In this document: in pieces, positions 1 through 62,600 of the stretch | How the letters are laid out: the number at the start of each line of letters is the position of its first letter | How positions within the stretch are numbered: position 1 is the stretch's first letter | Assembly: GCA_030646755.1 (NCBI GenBank) | Contig: JAUSKU010000092.1 | Span: 14,270-78,269, forward strand | Length of the DNA stretch: 64,000 bases | DNA from: Deltaproteobacteria bacterium | GTDB lineage: Bacteria; Desulfobacterota; JAENJC01 | Direction of reading: 5' to 3' | The notes under the pieces: generated by a model | What the model was told of the DNA's origin: nothing | Seen by the model: the letters and a program-made list of their open reading frames with translations, nothing else | The model's database searches: none | Program-made: the position numbers and the translations under genes

Positions 1-651
1 AACAGCATCAAGAACTGGCAGATACTAAAGGAGCACAATAAGCTGGTCGGTTCAAAAATGAACAATATCGTTAAAGCCTTGGGGAATTGCATCTTGCCTA
101 CCGCAGAGCTTGAGAAAGCAGCTATATGGCACGACTCAGGGAAGGCCCATGTGAAGTTTCAGGAATTTTTGTGCGGGGATGATGAGGCAAAAATGAAAGA
201 AGCAATCTGGGCAAAGTCTCCTTTCAGAAACCGAAAACACAAAAGGCCTTATTTCCGGCATGAGCTTGCCAGCGGGCTTGCGGCGCTCCAGAACGGGCAA
301 AGCGACCTTGTGGCATATCTTGCCGCGGCCCATCACGGGAAGGTGCGGCTGTCAATCCGCTCTCTTCCGGGAGAGAAAATACCGGACGACTCAAAGACCC
401 GTTTTGCGCGGGGCATTTGGGAAGGCGATGAACTGCCGCCAACCAAGCTTGCCGACGGTGTGATGATGGACAGGACTGTTCTGGATCTGGAGCCGATGGA
501 AATGGGAACTGGCAAAAACGGCCCCAGTTGGCTTGCCAGAACATTAAAACTGCGGGACGACTATGGACCATTTCGCCTTGCATATTTGGAGGCGCTGTTA
601 AAGGCCGCAGATGAAAGGGGGAGCAGAGAACAGGAGGCAGGCCATGAGTAA
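1..651 (+). CDS. cas3: Cas3 C-terminal HD nuclease domain (5'-partial; gene continues upstream of the window)
   Basis: The reading frame is open from base 1. HD-domain motifs are present: WHDSGKAHVKFQ (HDxGK), RHELASG and AAAHHGK. The stop at 649-651 overlaps the start of the next gene. Its position immediately upstream of csx17-csb1-csb2 matches type I-G loci, where Cas3 carries a C-terminal HD domain. Confidence 0.7.
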   Translation, partial: NSIKNWQILKEHNKLVGSKMNNIVKALGNCILPTAELEKAAIWHDSGKAHVKFQEFLCGDDEAKMKEAIWAKSPFRNRKHKRPYFRHELASGLAALQNGQSDLVAYLAAAHHGKVRLSIRSLPGEKIPDDSKTRFARGIWEGDELPPTKLADGVMMDRTVLDLEPMEMGTGKNGPSWLARTLKLRDDYGPFRLAYLEALLKAADERGSREQEAGHE

Positions 652-2812
652 TACCATCCGACTTGAAGGCTGCCGCCCTGAACCGTTGGCCCATTATCTG
701 AAGGCGCTTGCTGTCTTGCGCCTGGTCGCAGAACAGACAGACAGTGAAGCTGCCGGCTTCTGGGATGGGGACACATTCTGCCTCAACACAAGATTAACTG
801 AACAGGAGTTGGCTGAGTTCTTTCTGAAAGACTACACTCCAACGCCGATCATCGCACCGTGGAACGGTGGTAGCGGTTTTTATTATCAGGAAGAAAAGCT
901 CAAGGATAAAGACCCTATAACTGGCAAGCGGAAAAAGACCGGGCAGCGGAATCAGCCCACAGAGGCAACTAAAACCGTTGAACGATTGTTAAACAGCAAA
1001 TCTGAGCGGCTGTCCAATTATCGGAAAGTTCTTTCTGCAGCAAAACAAACCATTCAGTACTTGGGACTTGACGAAGCACCAAAAGACGACGGTAAATACG
1101 ATTTGCTTACCTCACTTCGGGGACGTTTACCCGAAGAAGCTTTAGCCTGGTTTGATGCAGCTGTATTGTTGGGAACAGAAAAAACCGGTTTTCCCCCGCT
1201 TCTTGGGACGGGTGGAAACGATGGCAATTTAGATTTCAGCAATAACTTCATGCAGCGGATAGTAGACATACTTGATGTAGATAGCGGTACTCCGCAATCT
1301 GAAGCAGTCAAATGGCTTAAAACTGCTCTATTTTCTGCAACAATGCCGGGTTTACAGCGCGACTCGGCAGTTGGACAATTCTACCCAGGTGCCGCTGGCG
1401 GCGCTAACGGTACGGCAGGGTTTGATGCCAAATCAATGCTCAACCCCTGGGACTTTTTACTTATGATAGAGGGTTCATTGGCTTTCGTGGCCGCCTCAAC
1501 AAAAAAACTGGGCAACAGATATGACGGCACCCTCAGTTATCCATTTACGTTCAGAGCTTCAGGTGTTAATTATGCAAGCGCCGATAAAAATGATGAAGAC
1601 CCGCGGGGAGAAATCTGGATGCCACTTTGGGAAAAACCTGCCGGAATTTCTGAAATAATGACGCTGTTTGCTGAAGGTCGAGCCACTGTTAACAGAAGAC
1701 AGGCTGTCAATGGAGTTGATTTTGCCCGTGCCGTCGCTACGCTCGGAACAGATCGTGGAATAACAGCATTCAACCGTTTTGGTTTTCAAAAAAGAAATGG
1801 CAAGGCCTACTTCGCTAATCCATTGGGTCGCTGGAAGGTGAACCCTGTCCCTGAAACCAACCTTATCTCTGAAATCGATGGATGGCTTGACAAATTCCGC
1901 CGCGCTGCATCGGGAGACAACGCTCCTGCAAGTATAGGACGCGCTTTACGAGATGTCGAATCCGCGATAATGGAACTTTGCCGCAGTGGCGCGAAAAGAA
2001 ATGCGCAGGCGCTTTGTATCGCGTTTGGAAAGGCAGAGCAGGCCCTGGCAAGGAGCAGCAGTTTTAGCAAGAAAGCGTTTGTCAAACCTATTCCGCTTCT
2101 TTCTGCAAACTGGCTGACCGCCTGTGATGACAACTCTTTGGAGTTCCGCCTTGCCAGTGCATTGGCTTCTGCGGCTATTCGAGAGAATATGGAACCTGTC
2201 CGAGTGAACAGATGGGTCGGTTGGGATGAAAACGACAAGCCGACCCACGTTGTCTGGGGAGAAGGGCGTTTGACTGAAAAGCTCATCTCAGTATTGGAGC
2301 GCCGCATAATTGACAGCAACAGCGATGATAAATATCAGGCATTCACGGCCTACTCAAGCCGTCCGGCTGAGCTTTCCGATATTGCGGCATTCATTAGAGG
2401 AGAGGTTGACGAAACCAGGCTGGAAGACCTATTGTGGGGGCTTAATCTTATAGACTGGCGCAGTGTTGAATATAAAAATAATCCGAGGGAAGAGGGTCGA
2501 CCTATTCCTATTGCATACGCTATGTTGAAGCTTTGTTTCCTCCCCGGTCTGCTTGACGATATAAAGATTCCCGTTCAGCCTGCCATTATTGCAAGGGCCA
2601 AAGCAGGCGATGCCCCGGCGGCCTCAAGGCTTTCCAGTAACCGCCTGACCGCCAGCGGTTTTGTGCCGAGAGTAAAAGGGATTTCAGAAGATCAGCAGAT
2701 TCTGCGGAGATGCGCTGCAGCCCTTTTGTTCCCGATAAAAAGAGAGGGTATACAGTTATTAGCCGGTATGGTTTTGCAACCAACCCAAAAATCGCAACAA
2801 AAAGGAGAATGA
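644..2812 (+). CDS. csx17: Csx17 / Cas8u2 large subunit of a type I-G (I-U) effector
   Basis: The ORF is 722 aa. An AGGAGG ribosome-binding site at 632-637 sits 6 nt before the ATG at 644, and the ORF-track start at 611 is an upstream extension. It lies between cas3 and the cas7 homologue, and its size fits the Csx17 family. Confidence 0.7.
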   Translation: MSNTIRLEGCRPEPLAHYLKALAVLRLVAEQTDSEAAGFWDGDTFCLNTRLTEQELAEFFLKDYTPTPIIAPWNGGSGFYYQEEKLKDKDPITGKRKKTGQRNQPTEATKTVERLLNSKSERLSNYRKVLSAAKQTIQYLGLDEAPKDDGKYDLLTSLRGRLPEEALAWFDAAVLLGTEKTGFPPLLGTGGNDGNLDFSNNFMQRIVDILDVDSGTPQSEAVKWLKTALFSATMPGLQRDSAVGQFYPGAAGGANGTAGFDAKSMLNPWDFLLMIEGSLAFVAASTKKLGNRYDGTLSYPFTFRASGVNYASADKNDEDPRGEIWMPLWEKPAGISEIMTLFAEGRATVNRRQAVNGVDFARAVATLGTDRGITAFNRFGFQKRNGKAYFANPLGRWKVNPVPETNLISEIDGWLDKFRRAASGDNAPASIGRALRDVESAIMELCRSGAKRNAQALCIAFGKAEQALARSSSFSKKAFVKPIPLLSANWLTACDDNSLEFRLASALASAAIRENMEPVRVNRWVGWDENDKPTHVVWGEGRLTEKLISVLERRIIDSNSDDKYQAFTAYSSRPAELSDIAAFIRGEVDETRLEDLLWGLNLIDWRSVEYKNNPREEGRPIPIAYAMLKLCFLPGLLDDIKIPVQPAIIARAKAGDAPAASRLSSNRLTASGFVPRVKGISEDQQILRRCAAALLFPIKREGIQLLAGMVLQPTQKSQQKGE

Positions 2813-2814
2813 AC

Positions 2815-3783
2815 ATGAGTATTAATCTTGATGCACTGAAAACAGTACCACGCCTGCTTATCGAGGCCGAACTCGCCCCCGTCCAGGGGAGCCGCTTTCA
2901 ACCAACGGGGTTCCCCGACCTTGGCGCCGCAACCTACACCCTGCATGATGGCACGGAGATGTGTCTCGTGGAATCGGCACAGAGCATGGCAAACCGCTTG
3001 GAGGCCGTTTGCTGGGATGGCGCGAATAGTGAGCTGATAGACCCGCTGAAGGGCATCCCATATATTAAGGTTGTGGAGGATGGCAAAACAGTTACAACCT
3101 CCATTCTTGATGCCCATCGGATGAATTCTCCATATATACTTGAAGGCGAAGACAAGAGTTTTTTGGAGACAATCAAAAAAGAAATTAATACAGCCAGTGA
3201 CCGTCCCGTGGATATGAGGGCACTAGCAAAATTTGTCTACAAGTACGACACAAATGCCCTGTTACACGGGATATTCATAGCTAAAAGTGATCTGGCAGGC
3301 GGGAGGTTTAAGATAGCGAGGTCACTCTCTTCTTTTATAGAAGCTCGCGGGATAAATGTAGTGGCATCCGGCGGAGTGAAAAATGACCCTGTTAACCCTT
3401 CCGGCGACACAGCCAAAGGTTACGGCAATGTTCCTTTTCACCGGGATGAGTATACTGCCCAGCAGATTACGGCATACTTCAATCTTGATTTAGCTCAGAT
3501 CCGTGGGTTCGGTTTGGGCGGAAATGCTGAAACTCTGCTGATTACACTGGCATTGTTTAAGATACAAAAGTTTCTACAGGAAGGCCTTCGTCTACGGACT
3601 GCTTGCGATTTGAAAGCAGTGTCAATTCAGGTTAAACAGCCAGCAAACTTCGTATTATCACCTCTCGAAGACCTAGGCATGGAGCTGCCAAAGTTAATTT
3701 CATCCTCGGCTGGTTTCGCAGAACCTAAAGTAACAACAGTAAAGTTTTCTCCGTCTAAGCCGAAAAAGGAGGTCATTGCATGA
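2815..3783 (+). CDS. csb1: Csb1 (Cas7 backbone subunit, GSU0053 family)
   Basis: The ORF is 322 aa. AAGGAG at 2802-2807 precedes the ATG at 2815, and the ORF-track start at 2710 lies inside the csx17 coding region. It carries the glycine-rich RAMP motif RFQPTGFPDLG and sits where cas7 belongs in a I-G operon. Confidence 0.75.
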   Translation: MSINLDALKTVPRLLIEAELAPVQGSRFQPTGFPDLGAATYTLHDGTEMCLVESAQSMANRLEAVCWDGANSELIDPLKGIPYIKVVEDGKTVTTSILDAHRMNSPYILEGEDKSFLETIKKEINTASDRPVDMRALAKFVYKYDTNALLHGIFIAKSDLAGGRFKIARSLSSFIEARGINVVASGGVKNDPVNPSGDTAKGYGNVPFHRDEYTAQQITAYFNLDLAQIRGFGLGGNAETLLITLALFKIQKFLQEGLRLRTACDLKAVSIQVKQPANFVLSPLEDLGMELPKLISSSAGFAEPKVTTVKFSPSKPKKEVIA

Positions 3784-5366
3784 TAGCCATCTCCTTTAAG
3801 TTTACGGGGGGCGGGTATCACGCCACTCCGTGGGGGAGGCATGTGAATGAAGGGGCAGTTGAGTGGCCGCCTTCGCCGTGGCGTATCCTGCGGGCTCTGC
3901 TTGCGACAGGGTATAATAAGCTTGGATGGGAGACTGGAAAGCCGGCATCCGAGGCGACAACCCTCATGGAGAAACTTGCGTCAGCGCCGCCTTCATTTAA
4001 CCTGCCGCCTGCGTCACTTGGACATGCGCGCTATTTCATGCCTGCACCTGAGACAAAGACGAAGATTTTTGACGCCTTTGTTGCCATCTCTCCTGAAGAA
4101 TCATTGGTTGCCATATGGGGCGATGTTGAACTAAGCCCGGATGAGACACAGTTGCTGGAGCGGCTTCTATCATCCCTTTCTTATCTTGGTCGTGCAGAAT
4201 CATGGGTAACTGCCAGCCTGCTCGACAAATGGGACGGCAATGCCAACTGCGTACCTTTAAATGGTCACGATATAAAGGAAGGCCAGCAGGTCCGTTTGCT
4301 TGCTGCGCAACCTTCCGAAGACTATAACTCATGGCGCACCGGATTTATTGAGGCTCAGGGGATAAAAGAGGGTGGTAAGAAGAAGGGTAAAGGTGTTTTT
4401 ACCGTGCCGGAAAGCATCTGGCATGTTCTTCATGCCGATACCGCCGAGCTTCAAAAAGAAGGCTGGTCAGTCCCCCCCGGCAGCCGCTGGGTTGAATATC
4501 TTTGTCCAGACGAGCTGTTTTCCGTCGCATACAGCCCTGTGAGAAAATCCGTGTTCCGTCCCACAGTTGCCCGTTATGCCCTCTCCGGTTCCGTCCTCCC
4601 GTTGTTTACTGATGCTCTCTTTCTTGGTGAACGGATGAGGCAGGCTCTGATGCATCATTCTAAGCGGATTAGCGGGGAAGAACATGCCCATCCTGTCTTT
4701 TCGGGCAAGACTGTGGATGGTAAAGCCGGCAAAGACTCCCATAAACACTCTTTTTATCTACCGGCAGATGACGACGGAGATGGACGGATAGACCACATCA
4801 CGGTATACGCATCCGATGGTTTCGATGATGCAGCTCAAAAGGCGCTTGGCGCTGTCAGGAAACTTTGGGGCAGCAGCGGTCACGATATCTACCTGGCCCT
4901 TGTAGGATTAGGAGAGGGGCCGACATATGGAGGATTCAATGTAAATGATGGGCAGACTCAGCAGCTTGCCGAATCAACGGTATGGGAATCTCGTACTCCT
5001 TTCGTCCTTACCCGACATCTCAAGGTAAAGGGCAGTGAACGTCACGACCCGGATGTTTACAGACGTGCTTACAGACGTGAACTGGAGAAGACACTAACTT
5101 TTGAATTGCAGCGAATTCGTCCGGCCCTGCCGGAAATTCTTAGCATTGAACATATAAACAGCACCGTAAACTCAATCGGAAAGGCAGTTCCGTGGTATAG
5201 CTTCAGACGGCAGCGTACAAAAGGCGGCGGAACCAGGGCGTCATTTCAGGGGCATGGATTTCGGGTAATATTCGCTTCGCCCGTACAAGGCCCTCTCATG
5301 GCGGGTTACGGCTGCCACTTTGGTTTGGGGCTCTTTACCCCAACTACCTTGCAAATTAGAGTTTGA
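3780..5366 (+). CDS. csb2: Csb2 (Cas5-Cas6 fusion, GSU0054 family)
   Basis: The ORF is 528 aa. The N-terminus HATPWG...EWPPSPWRILRAL is characteristic of the GSU0054 Cas5 family. Its start overlaps the csb1 stop as ATGA, and AGGAGG lies at 3765-3770. Confidence 0.75.
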   Translation: MIAISFKFTGGGYHATPWGRHVNEGAVEWPPSPWRILRALLATGYNKLGWETGKPASEATTLMEKLASAPPSFNLPPASLGHARYFMPAPETKTKIFDAFVAISPEESLVAIWGDVELSPDETQLLERLLSSLSYLGRAESWVTASLLDKWDGNANCVPLNGHDIKEGQQVRLLAAQPSEDYNSWRTGFIEAQGIKEGGKKKGKGVFTVPESIWHVLHADTAELQKEGWSVPPGSRWVEYLCPDELFSVAYSPVRKSVFRPTVARYALSGSVLPLFTDALFLGERMRQALMHHSKRISGEEHAHPVFSGKTVDGKAGKDSHKHSFYLPADDDGDGRIDHITVYASDGFDDAAQKALGAVRKLWGSSGHDIYLALVGLGEGPTYGGFNVNDGQTQQLAESTVWESRTPFVLTRHLKVKGSERHDPDVYRRAYRRELEKTLTFELQRIRPALPEILSIEHINSTVNSIGKAVPWYSFRRQRTKGGGTRASFQGHGFRVIFASPVQGPLMAGYGCHFGLGLFTPTTLQIRV

Positions 5367-5396
5367 CGAATTTACCACTGTTCTTTGACAAATGAA

Positions 5397-6165
5397 TATT
5401 GCCTCGGCAAAAGCCACGGCCCCATTGAAGCGACTACATCGAGCGCCTTAGTAATAGGGCGTTCCAGTGATTTCCGTGGCTGAAAAGCCACGGCCCCATT
5501 GAAGCAACGCCATATAAGAGAGATACTTTATTGGAACTTCCAGAATTTCCGTGGCTGAAAAGCCACGGCCCCATTGAAGCATATATTGCGGCATCGCTAT
5601 AGCCGCCCTGCCGGCGGCATTTCCGTGGCTGAAAAGCCACGGCCCCATTGAAGCGAGGCTGGCTTGGTATGCTATTCCGGCCCCTGCCCTCATTTCCGTG
5701 GCTGAAAAGCCACGGCCCCATTGAAGCGTTTCCATGCCGCCGGGTCAATAGTAACAACGTGCTTATATTTCCGTGGCTGAAAAGCCACGGCCCCATTGAA
5801 GCGTTTCCCACATCAAGCAGGCCTCGGAGGTTATAGATATTTCCGTGGCTGAAAAGCCACGGCCCCATTGAAGCGATGAGATTATGGACCTGGAAGAACT
5901 GGATATTTTAATTTCCGTGGCTGAAAAGCCACGGCCCCATTGAAGCGACACTATTCCAAGACTATTTGACAAGGAAGATGTCATTTCCGTGGCTGAAAAG
6001 CCACGGCCCCATTGAAGCAGCACCTGGTGAATAACCACTATGGCCGCGCTGATGTAATTTCCGTGGCTGAAAAGCCACGGCCCCATTGAAGCGTCAAGAC
6101 CAAGGAGCTGTTTGACACTTGCCTGACTCATTTCCGTGGCTGAAAAGCCACGGCCCCATTGACTA
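5397..6165 (+). CRISPR. CRISPR array of 11 repeats (36 bp, consensus ATTTCCGTGGCTGAAAAGCCACGGCCCCATTGAAGC) and 10 spacers of 36-39 bp
   Basis: Repeats start at 5397 (5'-degenerate, tattgcctcggcaaaagccacggccccattgaagc), 5470, 5545, 5619, 5692, 5767, 5839, 5911, 5983, 6057 and 6130 (3'-degenerate, ...CATTGACTA). The repeat has an internal hairpin GTGGCT-GAAA-AGCCAC and ends in ATTGAAGC, which resembles the type I 3' handle ATTGAAAC. That supports transcription on the + strand, in the same direction as the cas genes. Confidence 0.95.
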
Positions 6166-8984: not shown

Positions 8985-9000
8985 TAAAGAACCTCTTTTA

Positions 9001-9145
9001 TAGATTTATCTCGCAAAGGCGCAAAGGCCGCAAAGTGTTTTTTGACACTGATTCACACTGATTTTAACATGATTTTCACTGTGCAAATCATAAGGAATCT
9101 GTGGTTATCTGTGTCTAATGCTTCCTCTGCGTCTCAGCGGTAAAT
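9001..9145. repeat. intergenic element of about 130 bp (TTGACACTGATT ... ATCTGTG ... CTCTGCG..CAGCGGTAAAT), copy A
   Basis: It is homologous to 40182-40310, sharing tttgacactgatt, aaatcata, atctgtgt and ctctgcg..ctgcggtaaaa. Related CTCTGTG/CACAGAG arrays lie at 39141-39190 and 56478-56560. Confidence 0.65.
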
Positions 9146-10228
9146 TTAATCTTTTTTCAGCTTAATCAAAAACAGGGACATAATTAAAATCAATGGTCCC
9201 GAAAATAGCGCAGGTATAGGGACTGACATTGATTCCATTGCAACCGCAATCCCTGCCGGTGAGGCAACCCATCCAACTACTGCCATTCCAGCGCCTATCT
9301 TGAATCCGGTGCCTATCCTGGAATCCACAGAAAACCAGACAATCAGCATAAGGATACCATAAAAAGAGACCGCAGTGTTATAGAAAACAGTTGATATAAG
9401 GCCTGTAAAAAAGCCTATGGGAAATAAGATAAGCAAGGCAAGAGATAAGGCAAATGCCGATAATGTGAACAAGAATATGGTCCTTTCCATCCTCCTGTCC
9501 CATAAAAGACCGGCAAATATGGCTGATACCGCATGGACGACGCCGTTCCAGAACCATCGCCCTTCCCATGTATGCCTGTAAAGCTCCTCCCTCTTGATCT
9601 CCAGGTGAAAAACAAAGGAATCAATTGCTACGAGAGCTGCAAGAAATAAGACAATTTTCAGGTATCCGCCGTGAAACTCACACGGGTCAGCGGATGGATG
9701 GATATCGGCCTTAGAGGACAAGCAGAGGGAGCCTATTATGACGGTAACGATCCCGTTTATCAGGGCAATCCGCTCAGGCATGGTTATAAAACCACCCATA
9801 AGATTGGCTGCAAGATATACCACGGCCATGATCCATCCTGCGGCGGTTCCACGCTTTTTGGCAGGCCAGGCCTCTACAACCCTTACAACAAGGACGCCAT
9901 TGATTCCCATCAGAAGGCCGATAGCAATGAAGAACGGAGTCAGAAGCCTGTGGTCATAAATAGTAATGGAATAGACAGCGGCAAATCCCTGGAGAATAGA
10001 TAAAAAGCAGGCTAGATTAAAGACCTTTCTCAAGGAAATTGAATATCTATCCAGAAGATACCCTGTCAAAATAGAGAGCGATGCGCCTGTAAGGGCCATA
10101 AGCCCAAGAGGGAGTCCCAGGGATTCTATGGATAGACCGAACCTTTTTTCAACCATACCGAGGAGGCTGAATTGAACAAAGGTTATATAGAAAATGAAGT
10201 TTGCAGAAATGAGGGAGGCGAGGGGCAT
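9146..10228 (-). CDS. polytopic membrane protein, MFS-like transporter
   Basis: The ORF is 360 aa with about 10-12 hydrophobic segments. No specific motif was recognised. Confidence 0.5.
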   Translation of the reverse strand: MPLASLISANFIFYITFVQFSLLGMVEKRFGLSIESLGLPLGLMALTGASLSILTGYLLDRYSISLRKVFNLACFLSILQGFAAVYSITIYDHRLLTPFFIAIGLLMGINGVLVVRVVEAWPAKKRGTAAGWIMAVVYLAANLMGGFITMPERIALINGIVTVIIGSLCLSSKADIHPSADPCEFHGGYLKIVLFLAALVAIDSFVFHLEIKREELYRHTWEGRWFWNGVVHAVSAIFAGLLWDRRMERTIFLFTLSAFALSLALLILFPIGFFTGLISTVFYNTAVSFYGILMLIVWFSVDSRIGTGFKIGAGMAVVGWVASPAGIAVAMESMSVPIPALFSGPLILIMSLFLIKLKKD

Positions 10229-12715: not shown

Positions 12716-13201
12716 TCATCGAGAACAAGACGTAAGGTTTAAGAACCTTTCGTACTTTTCCCCGTTTGCAGTAACCTCTATCTCCCTCTCAGTCTCACCT
12801 ATTCTGTTAATGGTGATCCTCAGGCATTCAGCAGGTATCGCCTCTTCGACATTTGATGCCCATTCCAGGGCGGAAACGCCATCGCCATATAGATATTCCC
12901 TGTATCCAATCTCTTCCAATTCATCAAGGTCTGAGAGCCTATAAAGATCGAAGTGATAAAGGGGAATTCTTCCTTCGTGGACGTTCAGGATTGTAAAGGT
13001 GGGGCTCCTGACGTAAGATTCCTTAGATACTTCAAGCCCCTGTGCAAGCCCCTGAATCAGACAGGTCTTCCCAGCCCCCAGATCACCGTCAAGGGCTATG
13101 ACGTCTCCAGGTTGGCAAAGTCTGCCTATTTTGATCCCCAGCTTCCGGGTCTCTTCAGGACAATGACTGACCACTGACCACCGACCACTGACCACTGTCA
13201 T
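12716..13201 (-). CDS. tsaE: tRNA threonylcarbamoyladenosine biosynthesis protein TsaE
   Basis: GDVIALDGDLGAGKTCLIQGLAQGL carries the Walker A motif in TsaE/YjeE context. The annotated N-terminus runs through the GACCACT heptamer array, so the true start may be the internal GTG. Confidence 0.8.
   Translation of the reverse strand: MTVVSGRWSVVSHCPEETRKLGIKIGRLCQPGDVIALDGDLGAGKTCLIQGLAQGLEVSKESYVRSPTFTILNVHEGRIPLYHFDLYRLSDLDELEEIGYREYLYGDGVSALEWASNVEEAIPAECLRITINRIGETEREIEVTANGEKYERFLNLTSCSR
13168..13196. repeat. (GACCACT)n heptamer tandem array, site 1
   Basis: The sequence is gaccactgaccaccgaccactgaccactg. It sits at the 5' end of tsaE and the 3' end of the CBS gene. Confidence 0.9.
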
Positions 13202-13653
13202 CCCTTCGCTGATGCACGAACCACGTCTGCCTTGCCTATGATCCCGACCAGTTTATCTCCATCGACAACCGGTATGGTATAAACCTTCTTTTCTGACATT
13301 ATCGTGGCTATCTCACGAACAGGGGTATCAGAGGTAACAGTTATCGGGTCTTCGGTGTAGATGTCCTCTACCTTAGCCCCTGTCATCTTTTTCAGCTCCT
13401 TCTCAAAGTGTTTTTCGCTTTCGAGAAATATCACTGAGTCAAGAATAGTAAAGACCGTTGGGAGGTGAAGGGACTTGGACTGCTCCACCAGGTCGCTTTC
13501 CGTAACCACTCCTATGACCTTTCCAGAATTATCAACGACTGGGACACCGCTTATCCCGCTCATTGTAAATATTTCAGCCAGCTCAGAAACATTTGTTTCT
13601 TTCTTAACGGTTATTACATCCTTTGTCATTATATCTTTTGCTGTAAGCATCAT
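13198..13653 (-). CDS. CBS domain pair protein
   Basis: The ORF is 151 aa. MMLTAKDIMTKDVITV...GISGVPVVDNSGKVIGVVTESDL contains two CBS motifs. GGAG precedes the ATG at 13653, and the ORF-track extension to 13743 is a heptamer-repeat artefact. Confidence 0.75.
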   Translation of the reverse strand: MMLTAKDIMTKDVITVKKETNVSELAEIFTMSGISGVPVVDNSGKVIGVVTESDLVEQSKSLHLPTVFTILDSVIFLESEKHFEKELKKMTGAKVEDIYTEDPITVTSDTPVREIATIMSEKKVYTIPVVDGDKLVGIIGKADVVRASAKG

Positions 13654-13685
13654 CTGACTCCTTTTAGTGACCGGTGGCCAGTGGC

Positions 13686-13774
13686 CGGTGGTCAGTTGAA
13701 CTATTGATTTAATTGCAATTGCCGACCACTGATCACTGACCACTGACCACTGACTTTATTGCATAAGGTATCTT
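13686..13774. repeat. inverted pair of heptamer arrays: (AGTGRCC)n ... 27 bp ... (GACCACT)n, site 2
   Basis: The left array is agtgaccggtggccagtggccggtggtcagt and the right is gaccactgatcactgaccactgaccactgac. It lies between the CBS gene and nnr. Confidence 0.9.
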
Positions 13775-18087: not shown

Positions 18088-18126
18088 AGTGGCCGGTTTA
18101 AGGGACCACTGATCACTGACCACTGG
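18088..18126. repeat. heptamer array, site 3 (partial inverted copy then direct copies)
   Basis: The sequence is agtggccggtttaagggaccactgatcactgaccactgg. It lies between ppdK and glyS. Confidence 0.85.
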
Positions 18127-29558: not shown

Positions 29559-29703
29559 TTCTGAACCCTCCTTTTTATGGCTTCATGGCAATTTAGAAAA
29601 ACCGCTGGATACCGAAAATAAAAATGCCCTTCCCGTAAATTTACAGGGAAAGGCATTTTATACCCACCCGGGTATAAATAAAGATCATTAACGACGGTGC
29701 TAT

Positions 29704-29764
29704 GAGTTGAGTTGAGTTGAGTTGAGTTGAGTTGAGTTGAGTTGAGTTGAGTTGAGTTGAGTTG
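29704..29764. repeat. (GAGTT)12 pentanucleotide microsatellite
   Basis: The tract is a perfect tandem gagtt repeat. It lies 146-206 bp upstream of the lipoprotein start codon at 29558 and 70 bp downstream of the coiled-coil gene stop. Confidence 0.95.
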
Positions 29765-31624: not shown

Positions 31625-31806
31625 TGCGTAAACTCTTGATTATGGCCGCTATGGTCCTTGCCATGGCTGTAACATTTGGCTGCAAGAAGGCTGAGGAACC
31701 AGCTCCTGCCCCTGTTGCCGCTCCAGTTCCAGAAGCTGCTCCAGCACCTGAGACTGCCCCAGCACCAGAAGCCGCTCCGGCTGCTCCTGCTCCTGCAGGT
31801 CATTAG
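31625..31806 (+). CDS. small Pro/Ala-rich lipoprotein
   Basis: An AAAGGAGG ribosome-binding site precedes the ATG at 31625. The lipobox is LAMAVTFGC and the mature part consists of (APxPE)n-like repeats. Confidence 0.55.
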
Positions 31807-31840
31807 TATGTTAGGGGCGTAATTGCGCCCCTACAAAGTA

Positions 31841-31871: not shown

Positions 31872-32726
31872 TTTTTCGTTCATACTGCCGGTGCGGTAAC
31901 CCTCTATATCAAGGGTTACATAGGTAAACCCTTCTTTCTTAAACACACTCACTACTTGTTCCTTTATATCCTTGTTCAAGAATAACTGTATCTCAGCCTC
32001 AGGAACTTCTATTCTCGCTAATTCCCCATGATACCTTACCCTGAACTGGCTGAATCCAAGCCTCTTTAAGGTATCTTCACAATTGCCGACCTTTTTCAGC
32101 TTATCAATCGTAATCTCTGTTCCATAAGGAAATCTCGAGGACAAACAGGCAAAGGAGGGTTTGTCCCAGGTAAAAAGCCCGAGTCCCCTGCTCAATTCCC
32201 TTATTTCGTCCTTGGAAAGTCCGGCCTCCATAAGGGGGCTCCTGACGCCTAATTCAATGGCCGCATCCCTCCCAGGCCTGTAATCCCTTAAATCGTCAGA
32301 GTTAGAACCATCCGCAACCCATGAGAAACCGAGATCTCCAGCTTTTTCCTTCAGCTTTTCAAAAAGCTCACTCTTGCAGAAATAGCACCTTTTTAGGTTG
32401 TTCTCGGAAAAGCCAGGGATTTCGAGTTCATTGGAGTCGAAGATGATATGCCTGACACCCATTTCGGCGGCAAGCCTTACTGCATCCGTTAACTCTGATT
32501 CAGGGTATGTAGGAGATGTGGCAGTAGCCGCAATAACCCTGTCACCGAGGGTATCCTTCGCGACTTTAAGGAGAAAGGTAGAATCAACTCCACCTGAAAA
32601 GGCCACTATAACAGAGCCCATTTCTTTCAAGATATGCTTGAGATGGAGAAGCTTCGAGTTTCGGGCTTCGGATTTAGAGTCAGGTATTTCCGATCGCTGA
32701 CCACTGTCTTGGAAGCTTTCCATCAT
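31857..32726 (-). CDS. PP-loop ATPase of the LarE/TIGR00268 family (ATP-dependent sulfur transferase-like)
   Basis: The ORF is 289 aa. It has the SGGVDS PP-loop and the CYFCK and FACLSSRFPYGT motifs. Confidence 0.7.
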   Translation of the reverse strand: MMESFQDSGQRSEIPDSKSEARNSKLLHLKHILKEMGSVIVAFSGGVDSTFLLKVAKDTLGDRVIAATATSPTYPESELTDAVRLAAEMGVRHIIFDSNELEIPGFSENNLKRCYFCKSELFEKLKEKAGDLGFSWVADGSNSDDLRDYRPGRDAAIELGVRSPLMEAGLSKDEIRELSRGLGLFTWDKPSFACLSSRFPYGTEITIDKLKKVGNCEDTLKRLGFSQFRVRYHGELARIEVPEAEIQLFLNKDIKEQVVSVFKKEGFTYVTLDIEGYRTGSMNEKIKGL

Positions 32727-33870: not shown

Positions 33871-34539
33871 TTATGGTCTTATTTCCCATACAAGCTCTCC
33901 TCTGCCTGGAGGGCCGGTCATCACAAACTTTACAGATTTAGTCTCATTTGTTATCAGCTGCCTCTGATCAAGCAAATTCAAGGGGAATTTCACAGAATAC
34001 CCAACGCTCCAATCATCGAAATACGGAAAAAACCGAGTGATGTTCGGCCCTTTCCCCTTGAGTTTTTTTATCTCCAGGGGAGATACCCTTTCACCCATTT
34101 CATTTACAAGGTAAAGGGCCCATATAGGCTCTTTTCTTTCCAAATCACTCCATTCCTGAATCGGGGTATGAATTGAAATAAAGAACTCATGATATCCCCT
34201 TGGGGCCTCTATCTCATCCTCAGCAAGTTTTTTCACCTTCTCTGTGTCAAGCATGTAAACTGTTGAATATTCTCTGACATAAGACTCCCTGAACTCTTCG
34301 GTCTTAAAGGTCGCGTTAATAAGCAATTTCGTTTCAAAATTACTATAAACTTTACCTTCCCTTGTCCATTTTTTAAGGACAGACCCGTATCCATTCTCAG
34401 TAGGCTTTGTCACCTTTTGGGTAGCGCAGGAGGTTAAAAGGAGGCAACAAATAACGTAAGACGTGAGACGTGAGACGTGAAACGTCTGATACCGAGCACT
34501 GACCACTGACCACTGACCACCGACCACTGTTTTCATCAT
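33871..34539 (-). CDS. hypothetical lipoprotein (start uncertain)
   Basis: The lipobox is LLLTSCATQ. The annotated N-terminus is translated from the heptamer-repeat arrays GACCACT and GACGTGA, so the true start is probably downstream, giving a protein of about 190-200 aa. Confidence 0.45.
   Translation of the reverse strand: MMKTVVGGQWSVVSARYQTFHVSRLTSYVICCLLLTSCATQKVTKPTENGYGSVLKKWTREGKVYSNFETKLLINATFKTEEFRESYVREYSTVYMLDTEKVKKLAEDEIEAPRGYHEFFISIHTPIQEWSDLERKEPIWALYLVNEMGERVSPLEIKKLKGKGPNITRFFPYFDDWSVGYSVKFPLNLLDQRQLITNETKSVKFVMTGPPGRGELVWEIRP
34459..34530. repeat. (GACGTGA)3 followed by (GACCACT)4, site 4
   Basis: The sequence is gacgtgagacgtgagacgtgaaacgtc...gcactgaccactgaccactgaccaccgaccactg. 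It lies between pyrE and the lipoprotein gene. Confidence 0.9.
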
Positions 34540-35087: not shown

Positions 35088-35141
35088 AATGGAAATTAAA
35101 CCTCCGGTTACTGTAGGGGCAGGGATTGCCCCTACAAATAT

Positions 35142-36533: not shown

Positions 36534-36582
36534 TTTACCCCTTATATTATATAGGGGCAGGTTTTAAACTTGCCCCTACGGT

Positions 36583-39850: not shown

Positions 39851-39917
39851 ATTTCACCTTTTTGTAGGGGCAACCCTGTGTGGTTGCCCTAATTGGGACG
39901 GCCACATAGGGCCGCCC

Positions 39918-57589: not shown

Positions 57590-57892
57590 ATGAAAAGGAT
57601 TCCAAACGGTAGGTACACAAAGGAGTTTCGGGTAGAAGCAGTAAAATTAGTGACAGAAGGAGGGCTGTCAGTCCCTGAGGCTGGACGCAGGTTGTCATTG
57701 CCGCCTTCTACGCTAAACACGTGGGTAAGAGCTTATAAATCTGGAAAACTCGGAGAAGTCGGCAAGAACCAGAAGCCACTTTCTGAAGTAGAAATGGAAC
57801 TGTCGAAAGTCAGGCGAGAACTGGCAGAAGTAAAGATGGAGCGGGACATCTTAAAAAAAGCCGCCGCGTACTTTGCGAAAGAGTCGCTGTGA
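57590..57892 (+). CDS. IS3 family transposase OrfA (HTH)
   Basis: The ORF is 100 aa. It begins MKRIPNGRYTKEFRVEAVKLVTEGGLSVPEAGRRLS, and a leucine zipper follows. Confidence 0.85.
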   Translation: MKRIPNGRYTKEFRVEAVKLVTEGGLSVPEAGRRLSLPPSTLNTWVRAYKSGKLGEVGKNQKPLSEVEMELSKVRRELAEVKMERDILKKAAAYFAKESL

Positions 57893-58764
57893 GGTACGCG
57901 ATGATCCATGAGATGCGACTCCAGTATCAGGTTCCAGCCATGTGCCGGATATTTGAGGTATCTGCAAGCGGCTATTACTCGTGGCGCAGCCGCCCTATAA
58001 GCAAGCGTGCCCAAGAAGACCAGAGACTTGAAATAGAGATACAGGCATCCCATAAGCGCACCCGTAAAACCTGTGGTCCAAAACGAATACAGGAGGATTT
58101 AACGGAGCATGGGATAAATATAGGGACTCATCGCATCAGGCGCATCCGCAAGAAGCTTGGGATAAGGTGCATACAAAAGAAGAAGCTCAAGGCAACAACC
58201 GATTCAAATCACAACCTTCCTGTAGCGGAGAACCTGTTGGAACAGAACTTTGATGCAACGGCTCCCAACCAGGTATGGGTTACGGACATAACGTACATTC
58301 CGACAGATGAAGGGTGGCTCTACCTTGCCGGACACAAGGATATATTTACCAAAGAGGTAGTAGGTTATGCAATGGATGGACGGATGACAAAGGGCCTTGT
58401 CAGCAGGTCGTTATCCAGGGCAGTACGAGCAAAACAGCCGGATGCAGGTCTTATCCATCATTCAGATCGTGGAAGCCAATACTGCTCCTATGAATACAGA
58501 GACTTGCTAAAGCAATTCGGCATGAAGGCATCAATGAGCAGAAGAGGTAACTGCTATGACAACGCTCCTATGGAAAGTTTCTGGGGTACCTTAAAGAGTG
58601 AGGTTGTGCATCATCGTCGTTACAGAACACGGCAAGAAGCTATGCAGGAGATTACAGAATACATTGAGATATTTTACAATCGTCAGAGAAGGCAGGCAAA
58701 ACTAGGGTTTCTCTCTCCAGCAGTCTATGAACAAAAGTTTTATGAAAGGAAACTTGCAGCATGA
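57889..58764 (+). CDS. IS3 family transposase OrfB (DDE integrase core)
   Basis: The ORF is 291 aa. The DDE motifs WVTDITY...HSDRGSQY...NAPMESFW are present. The frame stays open upstream through the slippery site, so an OrfAB fusion by -1 frameshifting is predicted. Confidence 0.85.
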   Translation: MRYAMIHEMRLQYQVPAMCRIFEVSASGYYSWRSRPISKRAQEDQRLEIEIQASHKRTRKTCGPKRIQEDLTEHGINIGTHRIRRIRKKLGIRCIQKKKLKATTDSNHNLPVAENLLEQNFDATAPNQVWVTDITYIPTDEGWLYLAGHKDIFTKEVVGYAMDGRMTKGLVSRSLSRAVRAKQPDAGLIHHSDRGSQYCSYEYRDLLKQFGMKASMSRRGNCYDNAPMESFWGTLKSEVVHHRRYRTRQEAMQEITEYIEIFYNRQRRQAKLGFLSPAVYEQKFYERKLAA

Positions 58765-59085: not shown

Positions 59086-59143
59086 GTGAGTGAGTGAGTG
59101 AGTGAGTGAGTGAGTGAGTGAGTGAGTGAGTGAGTGAGTGAGT
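59086..59143. repeat. (GTGA) tetranucleotide microsatellite, about 14 units
   Basis: The tract is a perfect tandem repeat. It lies between the vapC fragment and the helicase-nuclease gene, 527 bp upstream of the start at 59670. Confidence 0.95.
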
Positions 59144-59669
59144 GCAATTCAGGTGCCACAGAATCTCCCAGGTGAGTTGCGTGATAAATAACAATCTCTA
59201 TTATTATTGAGATTGTATTACTGGAGCACAGAATCAAACTTTTTTCAATAGTTTATTTATTTTTCGTTTTTGCCTTAAATACCAAGACGTTACAAGATCA
59301 GCAAAAATCACAAAAAGCAAGATCGTCCATGTGGAATAAGAAAAACCTGGATTCGCAGGTTATTGAGCAGGTCAACAAACTCTTTGCTACCAGGCATCTG
59401 AACACCATCACTCTGCGCATAACTATAGCTGTGACTTGGCTACAAGTGAAGTCATGGGCACCCTGCGGATGAATATCTTCTCGCATTGACAAATAAATAC
59501 ATTAACCCTATCATAAAAGTTAACAAGGAGCACCGCGAAACCCTCAGGAAGCTTCCAAAGTAAATGATATGAGCGATATCCTCTTTTTGACCCTGGCCAA
59601 GGTTATAGAAATTCCTTCAGACCAGATAGATTTGCTGATATTCTGAAAACTCTTAAAGCATAAGGACAG

Positions 59670-62600
59670 ATGATTAACGGTACTGATTCAATCCCTGATC
59701 TGAAAGAAAGGGAAGAGGCGCTTGACCCTTCCAGGTCTTTCATAGTCCAGGCCCCTGCCGGTTCAGGCAAGACAGAGCTTCTGATGCAGAGGTTCCTGAG
59801 GCTCCTGGCAATAGTTGAAAGGCCTGAGCAGATACTGGCCATAACGTTCACAAGAAAGGCGGCTGGCGAGATGCAGAGCCGCATCATACAGGCCCTTCAG
59901 AGCGGCAAGGAAGTTCTCCCCCCATCCGAAAGGCCTAATGTAAAGAAGACCCATGAACTGGCAAAGACAGCTCTGAAAAGGGATTCGGAGATGGGGTGGA
60001 ACCTCCTGGAAAACCCTGGAAGGCTGAGGGTCCAGACAATAGACTCCCTCTGTTCGTCCCTCACAAGACAGATGCCGCTGCTCTCCCATTTAGGCAGGCA
60101 GCCGTCCATAACAGAGACACCTGATGAGCTTTACAGGGAGGCCTCAAGGCAGACCATCCTTATGGTCGAGAAAGACGGCAGGACCGGGGATTCGGTACGC
60201 AAGGCGCTGAGGCATCTGGATAACTCCGTCCAGGGGCTGGAAGACCGGCTTGTTATAATGCTTCAGAAGAGGGACCAGTGGCTGAGGCATGTGAACAGGG
60301 AAGTGAACGAGGATGATCTGAGAGAACTGCTGGAGGGCTCTGTCAGGAGGCTCGTGGAGGACTCCCTGGAAAAGGCAAAGGAAGAGCTCCCTGGCCACCT
60401 TATCGATGACCTGACAGTATCTGCAAGATACGCCGCCTCAAATCTCTTAAAAGAAGGTAACAGTTCTCGCATAAGCTGTCTGACTGCTCTGCATAACCTG
60501 CCGGATACGGTGGCAGACAACCTCCCAATATGGCAGGGGATAACAGAACTCCTTCTGACAAAGGAAGGTGAGTGGAGGAAGCCAGGCGGCATAAACAAGA
60601 AGTTAGGTTTCCCTGCCGATAAGACCGACGATGCAAAGAAAAACAAGGAAATGTTTCAGGGGCTTCTCACTACCCTGTCGGACAACGAACGGCTCCGCGA
60701 GGCCCTGGCTGTCATTCCCACTCTTCCCGGTGCTGGATACGATGAAGAGGAATGGCAGATACTCGATGCCCTCCTGCACCTCCTCCCTGTGGCGGAGAGG
60801 CGCCTCAAAAAGGTATTTGGCGAGGAAGGGGTTGTAGACTTTGCGGCCATTGCCATCTCTGCGTTAAATGCCCTGGGCACTGACGACAATCCTACAGACC
60901 TCATGCTCTCGCTGGATTACAGGATCCAGCACATACTTGCTGATGAATACCAGGACACATCACGGACCCAGCTCGAACTTGTAAAGGCCCTTACAAGAGG
61001 ATGGGAGCCTCACGACGGCAGGACCCTCTTTATAGTTGGAGACCCGATGCAGTCTATCTATCTCTTCAGGGAGGCGGTAGTCGGCCTTTTTCTTGAAGCC
61101 AGAAATATCGGGGTTGGGCACGTAGAGCTGCATCCGTTGACCTTGACAAGCAACTTCAGGTCACAGCAAAAAATAGTCGAATGGGTAAATGAGACATTTC
61201 AGGATGCATTCCCGGAAATAGAAGACAGCCTGACAGGCGCGATAAGTTATGCCCCTTTCGAGGCGACCCATCCGCCTCTGGACGGAACAACCGTTGATCT
61301 CCGCCTGTTCAGGGAAAGGGACGATATCAGGGAGGCCGAGGAGATTTCCGGGATAATAAAAGAGATAGACAGGTCAGGGGAAAGCGTTGCCATACTGGTG
61401 CGCTCGCGGCCCCATCTCGGCGAGATAGTAAAGAGGCTGAAGAAGGAAGGGATAGAGTTCAAGTCTGAGGAGATTGACCCGTTGATAGACAGGCCGGTTG
61501 TCCAGGACCTCTTTTCACTCTTGAGGTCTCTGATGCACCCCTGCGACAGGGCTGCATGGCTTGCCATATTGCGTGCTCCCTGGTGCGGCCTGACACTCTC
61601 CGACATCCACAAACTCTGCCTTGGGGACAGAGAGACACCTGTCTGGGCGCTGATGAACGATCAAGATCGCATAACCTCCATTTCTGAAGACGGGCAGAGA
61701 CGCCTTTCAATGATAAGCCGGAGACTGAGTAATGCCCTGAGATTATGGGGCAGGGTCTCCCCGAGGGTCTTGCTGGAAGGGTTGTGGGTAGAGCTTGGAG
61801 GCCCTGCGTGCATAGATGATTCTTCCATGAAGGATGCGGATGCCTTCTTCGAGATGCTGGATTCTGTGAGCACAGGCGGAGAGGTCGGCTCCATGGGCAG
61901 CCTTGAGTTCAGGATAAAGACCCTTTATGCCAGTCCATCAGGAAGGGGCGAAAAAGCAGTTGAGATAATGACCATCCACAAGGCAAAGGGGCTTGAGTTC
62001 GACCATGTGATCCTCCCAGGGCTCGCTAAGCCCACCAGGGGCAGGGACAAAAAGCTGCTCCTCTGGCTGGAAAGAGGTGAAGACCTGCTCCTTGCGCCGA
62101 TCGACAGCAAAGGAGGGGACACGGAAAGCGCCATCTACCGGTACATGGACGGAGTCGATGCGTTGAAGGAGGATCTTGAAAGAACGAGACTTTTCTATGT
62201 TGCAGCCACAAGGGCAAGGAAGAGGCTCTATCTATTCGGGGACGTCAAGGTAAAGGATACAGGGGAGATCAGTGTCCAGTCAAGGTCGCTCCTCTCATGC
62301 ATACAGCACATTATCATTCAAGTCCCCTCACCCTCACCCTCGCCCCCTCCGGTCAAGGTAGGGGAAAATACTTATCTCCGTCTCAGGAGGCTTCCGTCGT
62401 CGTGGGAGCTTCCTGAACCGGCCAGGCCTGTAGAGGTCGACAGCAAAGGGGCTGAAACTGCCTCCATATCTGTTGAACCAGAATTTAATTGGGCTGGAGA
62501 GGCGGTTAAGCATCTTGGGACAGTTGTGCATAAGTATCTGTGCAGAATGGCTGGCGAAGGCCTTTCGGAATGGAATGATGTGAGGGTGAGCATGGAAAAA

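Follow-up and report, generated by a model that had tools for sequence, protein, structure and literature searches.

Tandem arrays of the heptanucleotide AGTGGTC (GACCACT on the complementary strand) are found at junctions between cistrons in a 64,000 nt stretch of contig JAUSKU010000092.1, which is referred to here as the window. By sequence comparison the host is an uncultured organism, known from a metagenome-assembled genome (MAG) labelled Deltaproteobacteria, with the Geobacteraceae as nearest cultured relatives. Uncultured relatives share 72–86% GlyS identity with it and the Geobacteraceae approximately 58%. The element is a heptanucleotide repeat similar to the short tandemly repeated repetitive (STRR) sequences and is of the long simple sequence repeat (SSR) type; thus it is of a kind already known. 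The addition made here to the original finding is a polarity rule. Where two arrays form a close inverted pair, the AGTGGTC arm is on the 5′ side in all 56 pairs counted, and arrays that follow a stop codon mostly display AGTGGTC in the sense strand. This rule is the part that deserves follow-up, and it may help explain the role of such repeats.

The arrays are real and occur far above chance expectation. A pattern of two units with two or fewer mismatches gives 14 matches in the window, where 0.36 are expected, and none of 100 shuffled sequences reaches 14. Exact GACCACT is found at 15 positions of the + strand and at a single position of the − strand. In total the 64 kb hold five arrays, one inverted arm and one relic, spread over five junctions.

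Arrays at cistron junctions

Period-7 arrays were located by Tandem Repeats Finder (TRF) and by direct reading of the sequence; coordinates are those of the + strand (Table 1). TRF assigns the window arrays a period of 7, with 3.1–5.5 copies and an 86–92% match. All genes from approximately 6 kb to 55 kb of the window are carried by the minus strand, and thus the mRNA carries (AGUGGUC)n. The gene names tsaE, CBS, nnr, ppdK and glyS given in the initial annotation are confirmed by Pfam and homology, Nnr consisting of YjeF_N and Carb_kinase domains. Four of the five genes that host arrays are housekeeping genes.

The four direct arrays all lie 0–7 nt from the stop codon of the upstream gene. A randomly placed array has a 3.4% chance of such a position, and the chance for all four is approximately 1e-6. 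Together with the enrichment of 14 over 0.36, these distances bear out the proposal that the tandem units sit exactly at cistron junctions. Of the positions first proposed, 13168–13196 and 18088–18126 are correct, but the two parts of the inverted pair, placed at 13686–13716 and 13744–13774, are each 20 nt too high. The three junctions named are correct as well; however, the array at 34491–34529 and the relic at 32692–32705 were overlooked.

No promoter-like or terminator-like site is predicted at any array of the window, and the sole intrinsic terminator predicted in the glyS-tsaE stretch is situated 3′ of ppdK. The arrays are thus found inside operons and not at operon ends. A role as intrinsic terminator was considered for the arrays and rejected, there being no terminator-like site at the arrays and the foldback stem being followed by AAAAGGAG and not by a U-tract. 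Rfam covariance models give no match at gathering thresholds over the whole window, and no tRNA or tmRNA genes are found in it.

Polarity of the arrays

A search for exact (GACCACT)3 in one genome per GTDB species yields at least 120 loci (L001–L120) from at least eight phyla. Among the matches listed are Acidobacteriota, Planctomycetota, Chloroflexota, Cyanobacteria, Bacteroidota, Verrucomicrobiota, Nitrospinota, Actinomycetota and others. The initial annotation had held that such heptamers are known from cyanobacteria but not generally elsewhere. This is contradicted by the spread over phyla, and also by the reports from Beggiatoaceae, Bacteroidetes and Geobacter taken up below. Period 7 is moreover dominant among TRF matches of period 6–12 in two independent sets of loci, with dozens of units. 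In 80 unselected loci it accounts for 58 of approximately 170 such matches; the GACCACT unit itself is absent from the 56 heptamer arrays found in those 80 loci. The search does not mark GACCACT as special among heptamers.

Polarity was counted in the 120 loci of the search, with the window included in the pair counts and excluded from the stop-anchored counts. The stop-anchored count replaced a first tally of orientation relative to genes, which was confounded by short intergenic regions. Inverted pairs no more than 150 nt apart are ordered 5′-(AGTGGTC)n...(GACCACT)n-3′ in 56 cases and in the reverse order in none (49:0 with a stricter length cut). Approximately 43% of the segments of the GACCACT family are found in inverted pairs. 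Their spacers of 4–122 nt bear no relation to one another, and a variant unit in one arm often has its mirror image in the other. At gene-sized distances of 1–2 kb the order is reversed (5:0), which places genes between arrays in the pattern (GACCACU)n-start...stop-(AGUGGUC)n.

The first array within 60 nt after the stop codon of an open reading frame of at least 150 aa displays AGTGGTC in sense 67 times and GACCACT 15 times (p = 5e-9). Single arrays at tandem junctions show GACCACT in sense (17:6), typically abutting the ATG or the Shine-Dalgarno sequence. In the window all four stops and both starts conform to the rule. A related asymmetry is seen with unrelated heptamer units. In their inverted pairs the 5′ arm has more G than C in 24 of 31 informative classes (24:7), and an array after a stop codon has more G than C in sense in 44 cases against 17 (p = 7e-4).

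The codon content of the repeat, read directly from the sequence, differs between the strands. The sense repeat (AGUGGUC)n is free of stop codons in all three frames and offers a GUG start in each; in the complement (GACCACU)n each frame contains UGA, and ATG, GTG and TTG are all absent. This explains the fact that arrays overlapping coding sequence are seen in the AGTGGTC orientation only, and with GUG in all frames and no stop, slippage would not inactivate genes. A stop-free 5′ arm was also tried as a general rule, but it fails in other repeat classes, where stops are distributed 9:8. The excess of G over C describes the handedness better than does start/stop codon content.

On one reading, the counts of 56:0, 67:15 and 44:17 would argue for a process that is active and conserved, and not for passive slippage. 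Heptamer foldbacks would then form a widespread, unrecognised intercistronic class of fixed handedness, with a G-rich (AGUGGUC)n after the stop codon and a C-rich (GACCACU)n before the next start, maintained by such a process. This is put forward tentatively and is rather less than probable. Candidate processes are the hand-over of ribosomes from one cistron to the next, punctuation of operon transcripts by RNase III, avoidance of Rho loading, and a dedicated protein that makes or binds arrays. Avoidance of Rho as the cause of the handedness is unsupported, since in other phyla the sense strand commonly carries single C-rich arrays (17:6).

The variant units GGUGGUC and AGUGAUC (13731–13737, 18111–18117) are complementary, with G-U allowed, to the GAUCACC stretch of 16S rRNA, situated just 5′ of the anti-Shine-Dalgarno sequence; GAUCACU and GACCACU resemble that GAUCACC stretch itself. 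A ribosome-binding link of the variant units is a possibility; the window contains no rRNA gene.

The nnr/CBS junction

The Nnr reading frame enters array 2 and ends ...KSVVSGQ* at a TGA (13735–13733) created by the variant unit AGTGATC. The inverted partner of array 2, at 13666–13698, reads AGTGACC GGTGGCC AGTGGCC GGTGGTC on the + strand and GACCACC GGCCACT GGCCACC GGTCACT in sense. It stops 2 nt before the Shine-Dalgarno sequence AAAGGAG (13664–13658) of the CBS-domain gene, the ATG of which is at 13653. The arms at 13666–13693 and 13724–13751 are 28 nt long, display 75% Watson-Crick complementarity and lie 30 nt apart; the spacer is 23–30 nt, according to where each arm is taken to end.

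As RNA the junction folds with −43 kcal/mol and z = −3.7, with a 28-bp stem, and none of 200 shuffled sequences folds as well. Thus the inverted pair near 13700 can form a long stem, as had been proposed. The same region as DNA reaches only −15.9 kcal/mol, with a centroid essentially free of structure. A DNA cruciform, which had also been suggested, is unlikely because of this value and the 75% complementarity.

In relatives the same slot shows different contents. In L124 it is empty: the sequence is ...AAA TCT GTG GTT GGA TAA aaggag and Nnr ends KSVVG*, with no array. The native last codons of nnr thus already resemble the repeat unit. L123 and L203 carry a GTAGGGGC...GCCCCTAC element in the slot, a GTAG...CTAC double palindrome, and L125 carries another hairpin.

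The glyS/ppdK junction

GlyS ends ...TTSGQ* at a TGA (18115–18113) inside a variant AGTGATC unit of array 3. The ...TTSGQ* tail is common to GlyS of relatives with 72–86% identity. In L122 and L207 (84–86% GlyS identity) the junction carries a full foldback, consisting of the units AGTGGTC AGTGATC AGTGGTC AGGGGTC AGT, the spacer ttaaacc and approximately 3.7 inverted units. The window differs from these two by 7 nt in the 5′ arm and by exactly 21 nt in the 3′ arm, which shows that array length changes by whole units. The initial annotation had considered the arrays perhaps slippage-prone and had suggested a comparison of copy number between strains; the comparison between relatives, where orthologous arrays differ by exactly 7 and 21 nt, agrees with this. 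Judged from this alignment, the lone unit at 18088–18094 is the remnant of the 3′ arm of approximately 3.7 units kept in L122 and L207, and the window junction is a decayed copy of their foldback.

In L203–L205 (78%) the slot is filled by the palindrome GTAGGGGCAGGGGTGACCCCGCCCCTAC, which is similar to repetitive extragenic palindromic (REP) sequences, and L206 has a plain hairpin there. These palindromes belong to a second family that fills junctions, consisting of (G/T)TAGGGGC...GCCCCTAC palindromes in intergenic gaps. By comparison of relatives, arrays come and go at given junctions and share their slots with the REP-like palindromes.

ATGA junctions

The stop codon of the CBS-domain gene (13200–13198) overlaps the start of tsaE (13201–13199) as ATGA. 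Array 1 begins 1 nt past the overlap and is read in frame as tsaE codons 2–12 (MTVVSGRWSVVSHCPEET...). L123 and L203 have the ATGA overlap without an array and read MKKITIRTHSPEET. L125 carries a four-unit array with ATAA in place of ATGA, and with the ATG lost its tsaE can start only at a GTG of the array. An independent short-read Logan contig of the same organism (L121) starts inside array 1 (L121 positions 1–30), i.e. the assembly breaks there, which implies many copies of the array in the genome.

It had been held that translation through the arrays produces spurious N-terminal extensions. For the CBS-domain gene this is correct. The Shine-Dalgarno sequence AAAGGAG with the ATG at 13653 is the start found in relatives, and by this comparison the open reading frame of 181 aa from GTG 13743 is spurious. 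For tsaE it probably does not apply, as the ATGA start is kept in array-free relatives. The N-terminus MTVVSGRWSVVS of TsaE is probably genuine: the ATGA has the same position whether an array is present or not, the array preserves the frame, and no other start is available in L125.

A second ATGA junction joins the stop of a phosphoribosyltransferase gene (34538–34536) to the start of a lipoprotein gene (34539). Array 4 starts 7 nt past it and is in frame with the lipoprotein (MMKTVVGGQWSVVS...), which has a lipobox signal peptide (...VICCLLLTSC). The adjacent (CACGTCT)4.6 at 34454–34485 encodes ...HVSRLTS..., the n-region of that signal peptide. L210, L208 and L211 (84–59% lipoprotein identity) keep ATG-AAR-AC(AGTGGTC)3–4 in frame, giving MKTVV(G/D/S)...WS, and the lipoprotein N-terminus read through the arrays is most likely genuine also. 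Copy number at this junction is 3–5.5 units across L211, L210, L208 and the window.

The second lipoprotein array differs by genome: it is (CACGTCT)n in the window and L209, and (ACGGCTT/ACAGCTT)n in L210 (290–400) and L208 (625–740), where it codes for the hydrophobic core of the signal peptide. In L209 (43–140) the first lipoprotein array is also a different one, (AAGTTCA)n. Thus four units, AGTGGTC, CACGTCT, ACGGCTT and AAGTTCA, are found at one junction among relatives, and the one junction appears to generate new heptamer arrays repeatedly. A third ATGA junction (32726) is followed by the two-unit relic at codons 8–12 of a PP-loop ATPase gene.

Origin and possible role of the arrays

The proposed mechanism combines an origin by slippage, a filter by translation signals, and action as REP-like intercistronic mRNA stem-loops, the last being a putative function. 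We give the whole about an even chance of being correct. The arrays would arise and change in length through slipped-strand mispairing, in some cases from a seed in the last codons of a gene, as in nnr (...TCT GTG GTT). The differences by whole units, the several unrelated units at one junction and the seeding in native codons argue for such an origin. Selection would then keep placements compatible with translation: the open AGUGGUC strand on the stop side or within the first or last codons, and the closed GACCACU strand just before the next ribosome-binding site. A filter of this kind is suggested by the orientation inside coding ends and by the polarity at stops and starts. A change in copy number would spare the downstream gene, as every frame has a GUG and none a stop.

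Where both arms are present they are predicted to form a long intercistronic mRNA stem-loop reaching from at or before the upstream stop codon to the downstream Shine-Dalgarno sequence. As the stem spans this distance, a terminating ribosome would have to melt it. Such a structure could, like REP hairpins, protect or mark the 3′ end of the upstream cistron, and could make downstream initiation dependent on ribosomes that melt the stem.

Several observations weigh against this mechanism. That the arrays are translated, and that the stem has an effect, we infer from sequence. The glyS/ppdK stem of the window (18.1 kb) is not significant (z = −0.7). Folding of 31 foldbacks from tandem junctions shows no advantage of the sense over the antisense transcript, and therefore no strand-specific RNA signature is seen. 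Codon content predicts nothing at convergent junctions, yet pairs there keep their handedness. In other repeat classes the start-codon asymmetry is weak (13:5, not significant), with the G>C excess of the 5′ arm significant (24:7). The gene calls in the cross-phylum loci are crude and based on open reading frames. Finally, units are homogeneous across relatives with only approximately 60% protein identity, and this homogeneity could reflect selection on the sequence itself, e.g. as a binding site, and not slippage. Strand-specific selection on the RNA through G-U wobble was tried as a separate explanation and rejected, as neither the 31 foldbacks nor the window foldback (−38.3 in sense, −37.0 in antisense) shows a difference.

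The homogeneity of units leads to the first alternative, in which the arrays are bound by a dedicated protein that recognizes the 7-nt units in register, either a DNA-binding global regulator or nucleoid protein or an RNA-binding translational regulator (S1, Csp, CsrA-like). The same unit, handedness (56:0) and position at stops and starts recur in at least eight phyla, and the units at the lipoprotein junction are near-perfect despite 59–60% protein identity. Arrays in other phyla abut or overlap the ATG and the Shine-Dalgarno sequence, as do TAACTGA arrays (PMC4679880) and the Nostoc GAC(C/T)AAT array (bioRxiv 10.1101/2022.06.06.494920). The paired sites of Geobacter metallireducens have been read as sites for a DNA-binding global regulator or nucleoid protein (PMC2700814), and TAACTGA in Beggiatoaceae has been proposed as a site for an RNA-binding translational regulator. 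However, many unrelated units form the same inverted pairs in one genome and even at one junction, which would require many specific binding proteins. Sister lineages do without the arrays or have REP-like palindromes in their place, copy number and unit sequence are loose, with the 3′ arm at 13666–13698 only 75% complementary, and no candidate protein is identified. We regard binding sites as an unlikely explanation.

Less probable again is a mobile foldback, i.e. an inverted pair inserted whole by a transposase or an enzyme of the REP-associated tyrosine transposase (RAYT) type, in the manner of miniature inverted-repeat transposable elements or REP sequences, with single arrays as decayed halves. 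In comparison with L124 the nnr/CBS junction does look like an insertion of approximately 85 nt just before TAAaaggag, and GTAG-headed REP-like palindromes occupy exactly both slots in sister lineages. The handedness is fixed, variant units are mirrored between arms at several loci, and the break of the L121 contig inside array 1 is as expected of a multi-copy element. But no target-site duplication is seen, the spacers (4–122 nt) are unrelated between loci, and arm length varies by single units. There is no transposase between or beside the arms, pairs at longer range bracket ordinary genes, and the GTAG/CGTC head that defines REP sequences is absent.

A contingency locus, in which a 7-nt unit in the 5′ coding region slips, shifts the frame and switches the gene on or off, appears very improbable. 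A case of this kind is CTCTT in the signal-peptide region of Neisseria opa. The lipoprotein gene has two heptamer arrays in its signal-peptide region, with a hydrophobic core of (ACGGCTT)n in relatives; arrays whose unit is not a multiple of three lie in the first codons of the tsaE, lipoprotein and PP-loop ATPase genes; and perfect (TGAGT)12 and (GTGA)15 tracts are present in the window as well. On the other hand the hosts are mostly housekeeping or essential genes (glyS, tsaE, nnr, ppdK) and the arrays are short (3–5 units) and imperfect. With GUG in every sense frame and no stop, slippage provides no off-switch, and tsaE of L125 starts at the array GTG; an array at the 3′ end of a gene has nothing to switch.

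Chance low-complexity sequence or an assembly artefact, conceivable since the source is a short-read MAG in which repeats can mis-assemble, is refuted by orthologous arrays in independent assemblies of other samples (L121, L122, L125, L207, L208, L210 and L211) and is almost certainly wrong, given also the 14 matches against 0.36 expected and the reading frames kept across arrays.

Comparison with known repeats

Named cyanobacterial STRR units include CCCCAGT, TTGGTCA and CAACAGT. GACCACT/AGTGGTC is not among these named units and the host is not a cyanobacterium. The window arrays are similar to cyanobacterial STRR sequences in consisting of tandem 7-nt units with many dispersed copies, situated at gene boundaries and often touching the start codon. 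There is some kinship of units: GGTCAGT has the CAGT core, and GACCACT is one base from the Nostoc unit GACCAAT. In Nostoc an array of eight GAC(C/T)AAT units overlaps the recO start (bioRxiv 10.1101/2022.06.06.494920). Differences are the deltaproteobacterial host, the opposite orientation on the sense strand, the arrays that run into coding sequence, and the presence of the unit in at least eight phyla.

In marine Beggiatoaceae, some cyanobacteria and Bacteroidetes, TAACTGA arrays are located ahead of start codons (MacGregor, 2015; PMC4679880). They resemble the present arrays in being heptamers of 2–6 copies, mostly in one orientation, near start codons of genes that include essential ones; they are also patchy across phyla, and the unit contains ACTG. 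However, TAACTGA arrays replace the ribosome-binding site 5′ of the start, whereas the window arrays follow the stop or start and the Shine-Dalgarno sequence is kept at the CBS-domain gene and ppdK. Inverted repeats also set the two apart, with one among 170 TAACTGA sets (PMC4679880) compared with approximately 43% of GACCACT arrays.

In G. metallireducens, the closest cultured relative, paired tandem sites of 7–9 nt were described as 'global regulator binding sites' of classes 1–3, e.g. MTYCTGA x5 (Aklujkar, 2009; PMC2700814). These also have 3–5 units in opposite-strand pairs of variable spacing inside operons (e.g. proB/proA), and a sister species carries a different element in the same place. 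The foldback at 13666–13754 of the window fits this description, and the pair at 18088–18125 would be a vestigial one. Pairs of (CTTCTGA)n were found again in the Geobacter-like loci L157, L160 and L162. The Geobacter sites have other unit sequences, and neither overlap with coding ends nor a polarity rule is described for them (PMC2700814). Their interpretation as IHF/HU-type DNA sites (PMC2700814) is a proposal only.

As summarized in PMC4679880, heptanucleotides are the commonest long SSR in many prokaryotes and were attributed to polymerase slippage (Mrazek, 2007). Period 7 is also dominant in the loci examined here. In that summary the survey treats SSRs as a mutational category and does not deal with junction placement, inverted pairing or polarity.

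REP sequences and bacterial interspersed mosaic elements (BIMEs), which are tagged by GTAG or CGTC (PMC3733652), are likewise hairpin-forming, multi-copy and located inside operons just after stop codons, and the heptamer foldbacks occupy the same slots as GTAGGGGC...GCCCCTAC in sister lineages. With respect to membership in this family, the foldback is an imperfect palindrome that is extragenic, after a stop codon and inside an operon. Its arms consist of tandem units, however, without a GTAG or CGTC head or any other conserved tetranucleotide at the head; the loop varies and no sign of a RAYT is seen. No Y1 transposase is found among the open reading frames of the window that were scanned, which are a subset of all.

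Heptanucleotide arrays are among the commonest unexplained bacterial repeats, and the present ones show how a slippage-prone repeat can live in the ends of essential genes. For annotation they are of consequence in that gene callers misplace starts and stops at arrays and short-read assemblies break there, as in L121. The occurrence of one unit in many phyla, the exchange with REP-like elements and the strict polarity provide testable hypotheses on translation coupling and the processing of operon mRNA. If true, the reading of the arrays as elements that bracket genes would provide the STRR question, now 35 years old, with a concrete function open to test.

Coordinates of the features

Table 1. 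Repeat elements of the window, REP-like palindromes in related loci, and genes of the glyS-tsaE stretch in order of transcription.
Feature	Coordinates	Strand	Description
Array 1	13166–13199	−	(AGTGGTC)x4.6 on sense strand, 92% match (TRF)
Array 2, foldback 5′ arm	13722–13754	−	(AGTGGTC)x4.4 on sense strand, 91% match
Foldback loop	13699–13721	−	Non-repeat spacer, 23 nt
Foldback 3′ arm	13666–13698	−	Inverted partner of array 2, degenerate GACCACT units
Array 3	18104–18125	−	(AGTGGTC)x3.1 on sense strand
Lone inverted unit	18088–18094	−	GGCCACT on sense strand, 5′ of ppdK Shine-Dalgarno
Array 4	34491–34529	−	(AGTGGTC)x5.5 on sense strand
Second, different heptamer array	34454–34485	−	(CACGTCT)x4.6 on sense strand, (GACGTGA)n on +; abuts array 4
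Two-unit relic	32692–32705	−	AGTGGTC AGCGATC on sense strand
REP-like palindrome	31806–31834		GTAGGGGC-type, other junction of the window
REP-like palindrome	35113–35135		GTAGGGGC-type, other junction of the window
REP-like palindrome	36545–36579		GTAGGGGC-type, other junction of the window
REP-like palindrome	39864–39900		GTAGGGGC-type, other junction of the window
REP-like palindrome	L123 1074–1124		Relative
REP-like palindrome	L203 2135–2162		Relative
REP-like palindrome	L204 9879–9906		Relative
REP-like palindrome	L206 1084–1136		Relative
REP-like palindrome	L206 6634–6661		Relative
glyS	20194–18113	−	
ppdK	18063–15373	−	
Intrinsic terminator	15368–15345	−	Predicted, 3′ of ppdK
nnr	15274–13733	−	
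CBS-domain gene	13653–13198	−	
tsaE	13201–12716	−	

Other features of the window

Two perfect tracts with shorter units are also present. (TGAGT)12 at 29703–29764 lies in a gap of approximately 200 nt and resembles a classical phase-variation tract. It is situated approximately 145 nt 5′ of the start (29558) of a gene on the − strand for a 911-aa surface-type protein with SpaA_4, CarboxypepD_reg and TbpB_B_D domains. The tract (GTGA)14.8 at 59086–59144 is intergenic, between an IS-type integrase gene (rve, 57889–58764) and a gene for a UvrD/PD-(D/E)XK helicase-nuclease (59670–63020).

A CRISPR-Cas locus spans 58–6162 and includes a Cas3 HD domain (58–651) and a protein of the Cas_GSU0053 family (2710–3783). 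The repeat-spacer blocks, with a period of approximately 74 nt, are at 5545–5728 and 5911–6162 and carry the repeat ATTTCCGTGGCTGAAAAGCCACGGCCCCATTGAAGC.

A conserved intergenic element of approximately 130 nt is found at 8985–9150 (−) of the window and at 150–310 of L207, with the sequence ...TTATGATTTGCACAGTGAAAATCAT...AATCAGTGTxAATCAGTGTCAAAAAAC.... It precedes different genes in the two and may represent either a non-coding element that is dispersed or a regulatory region common to both.

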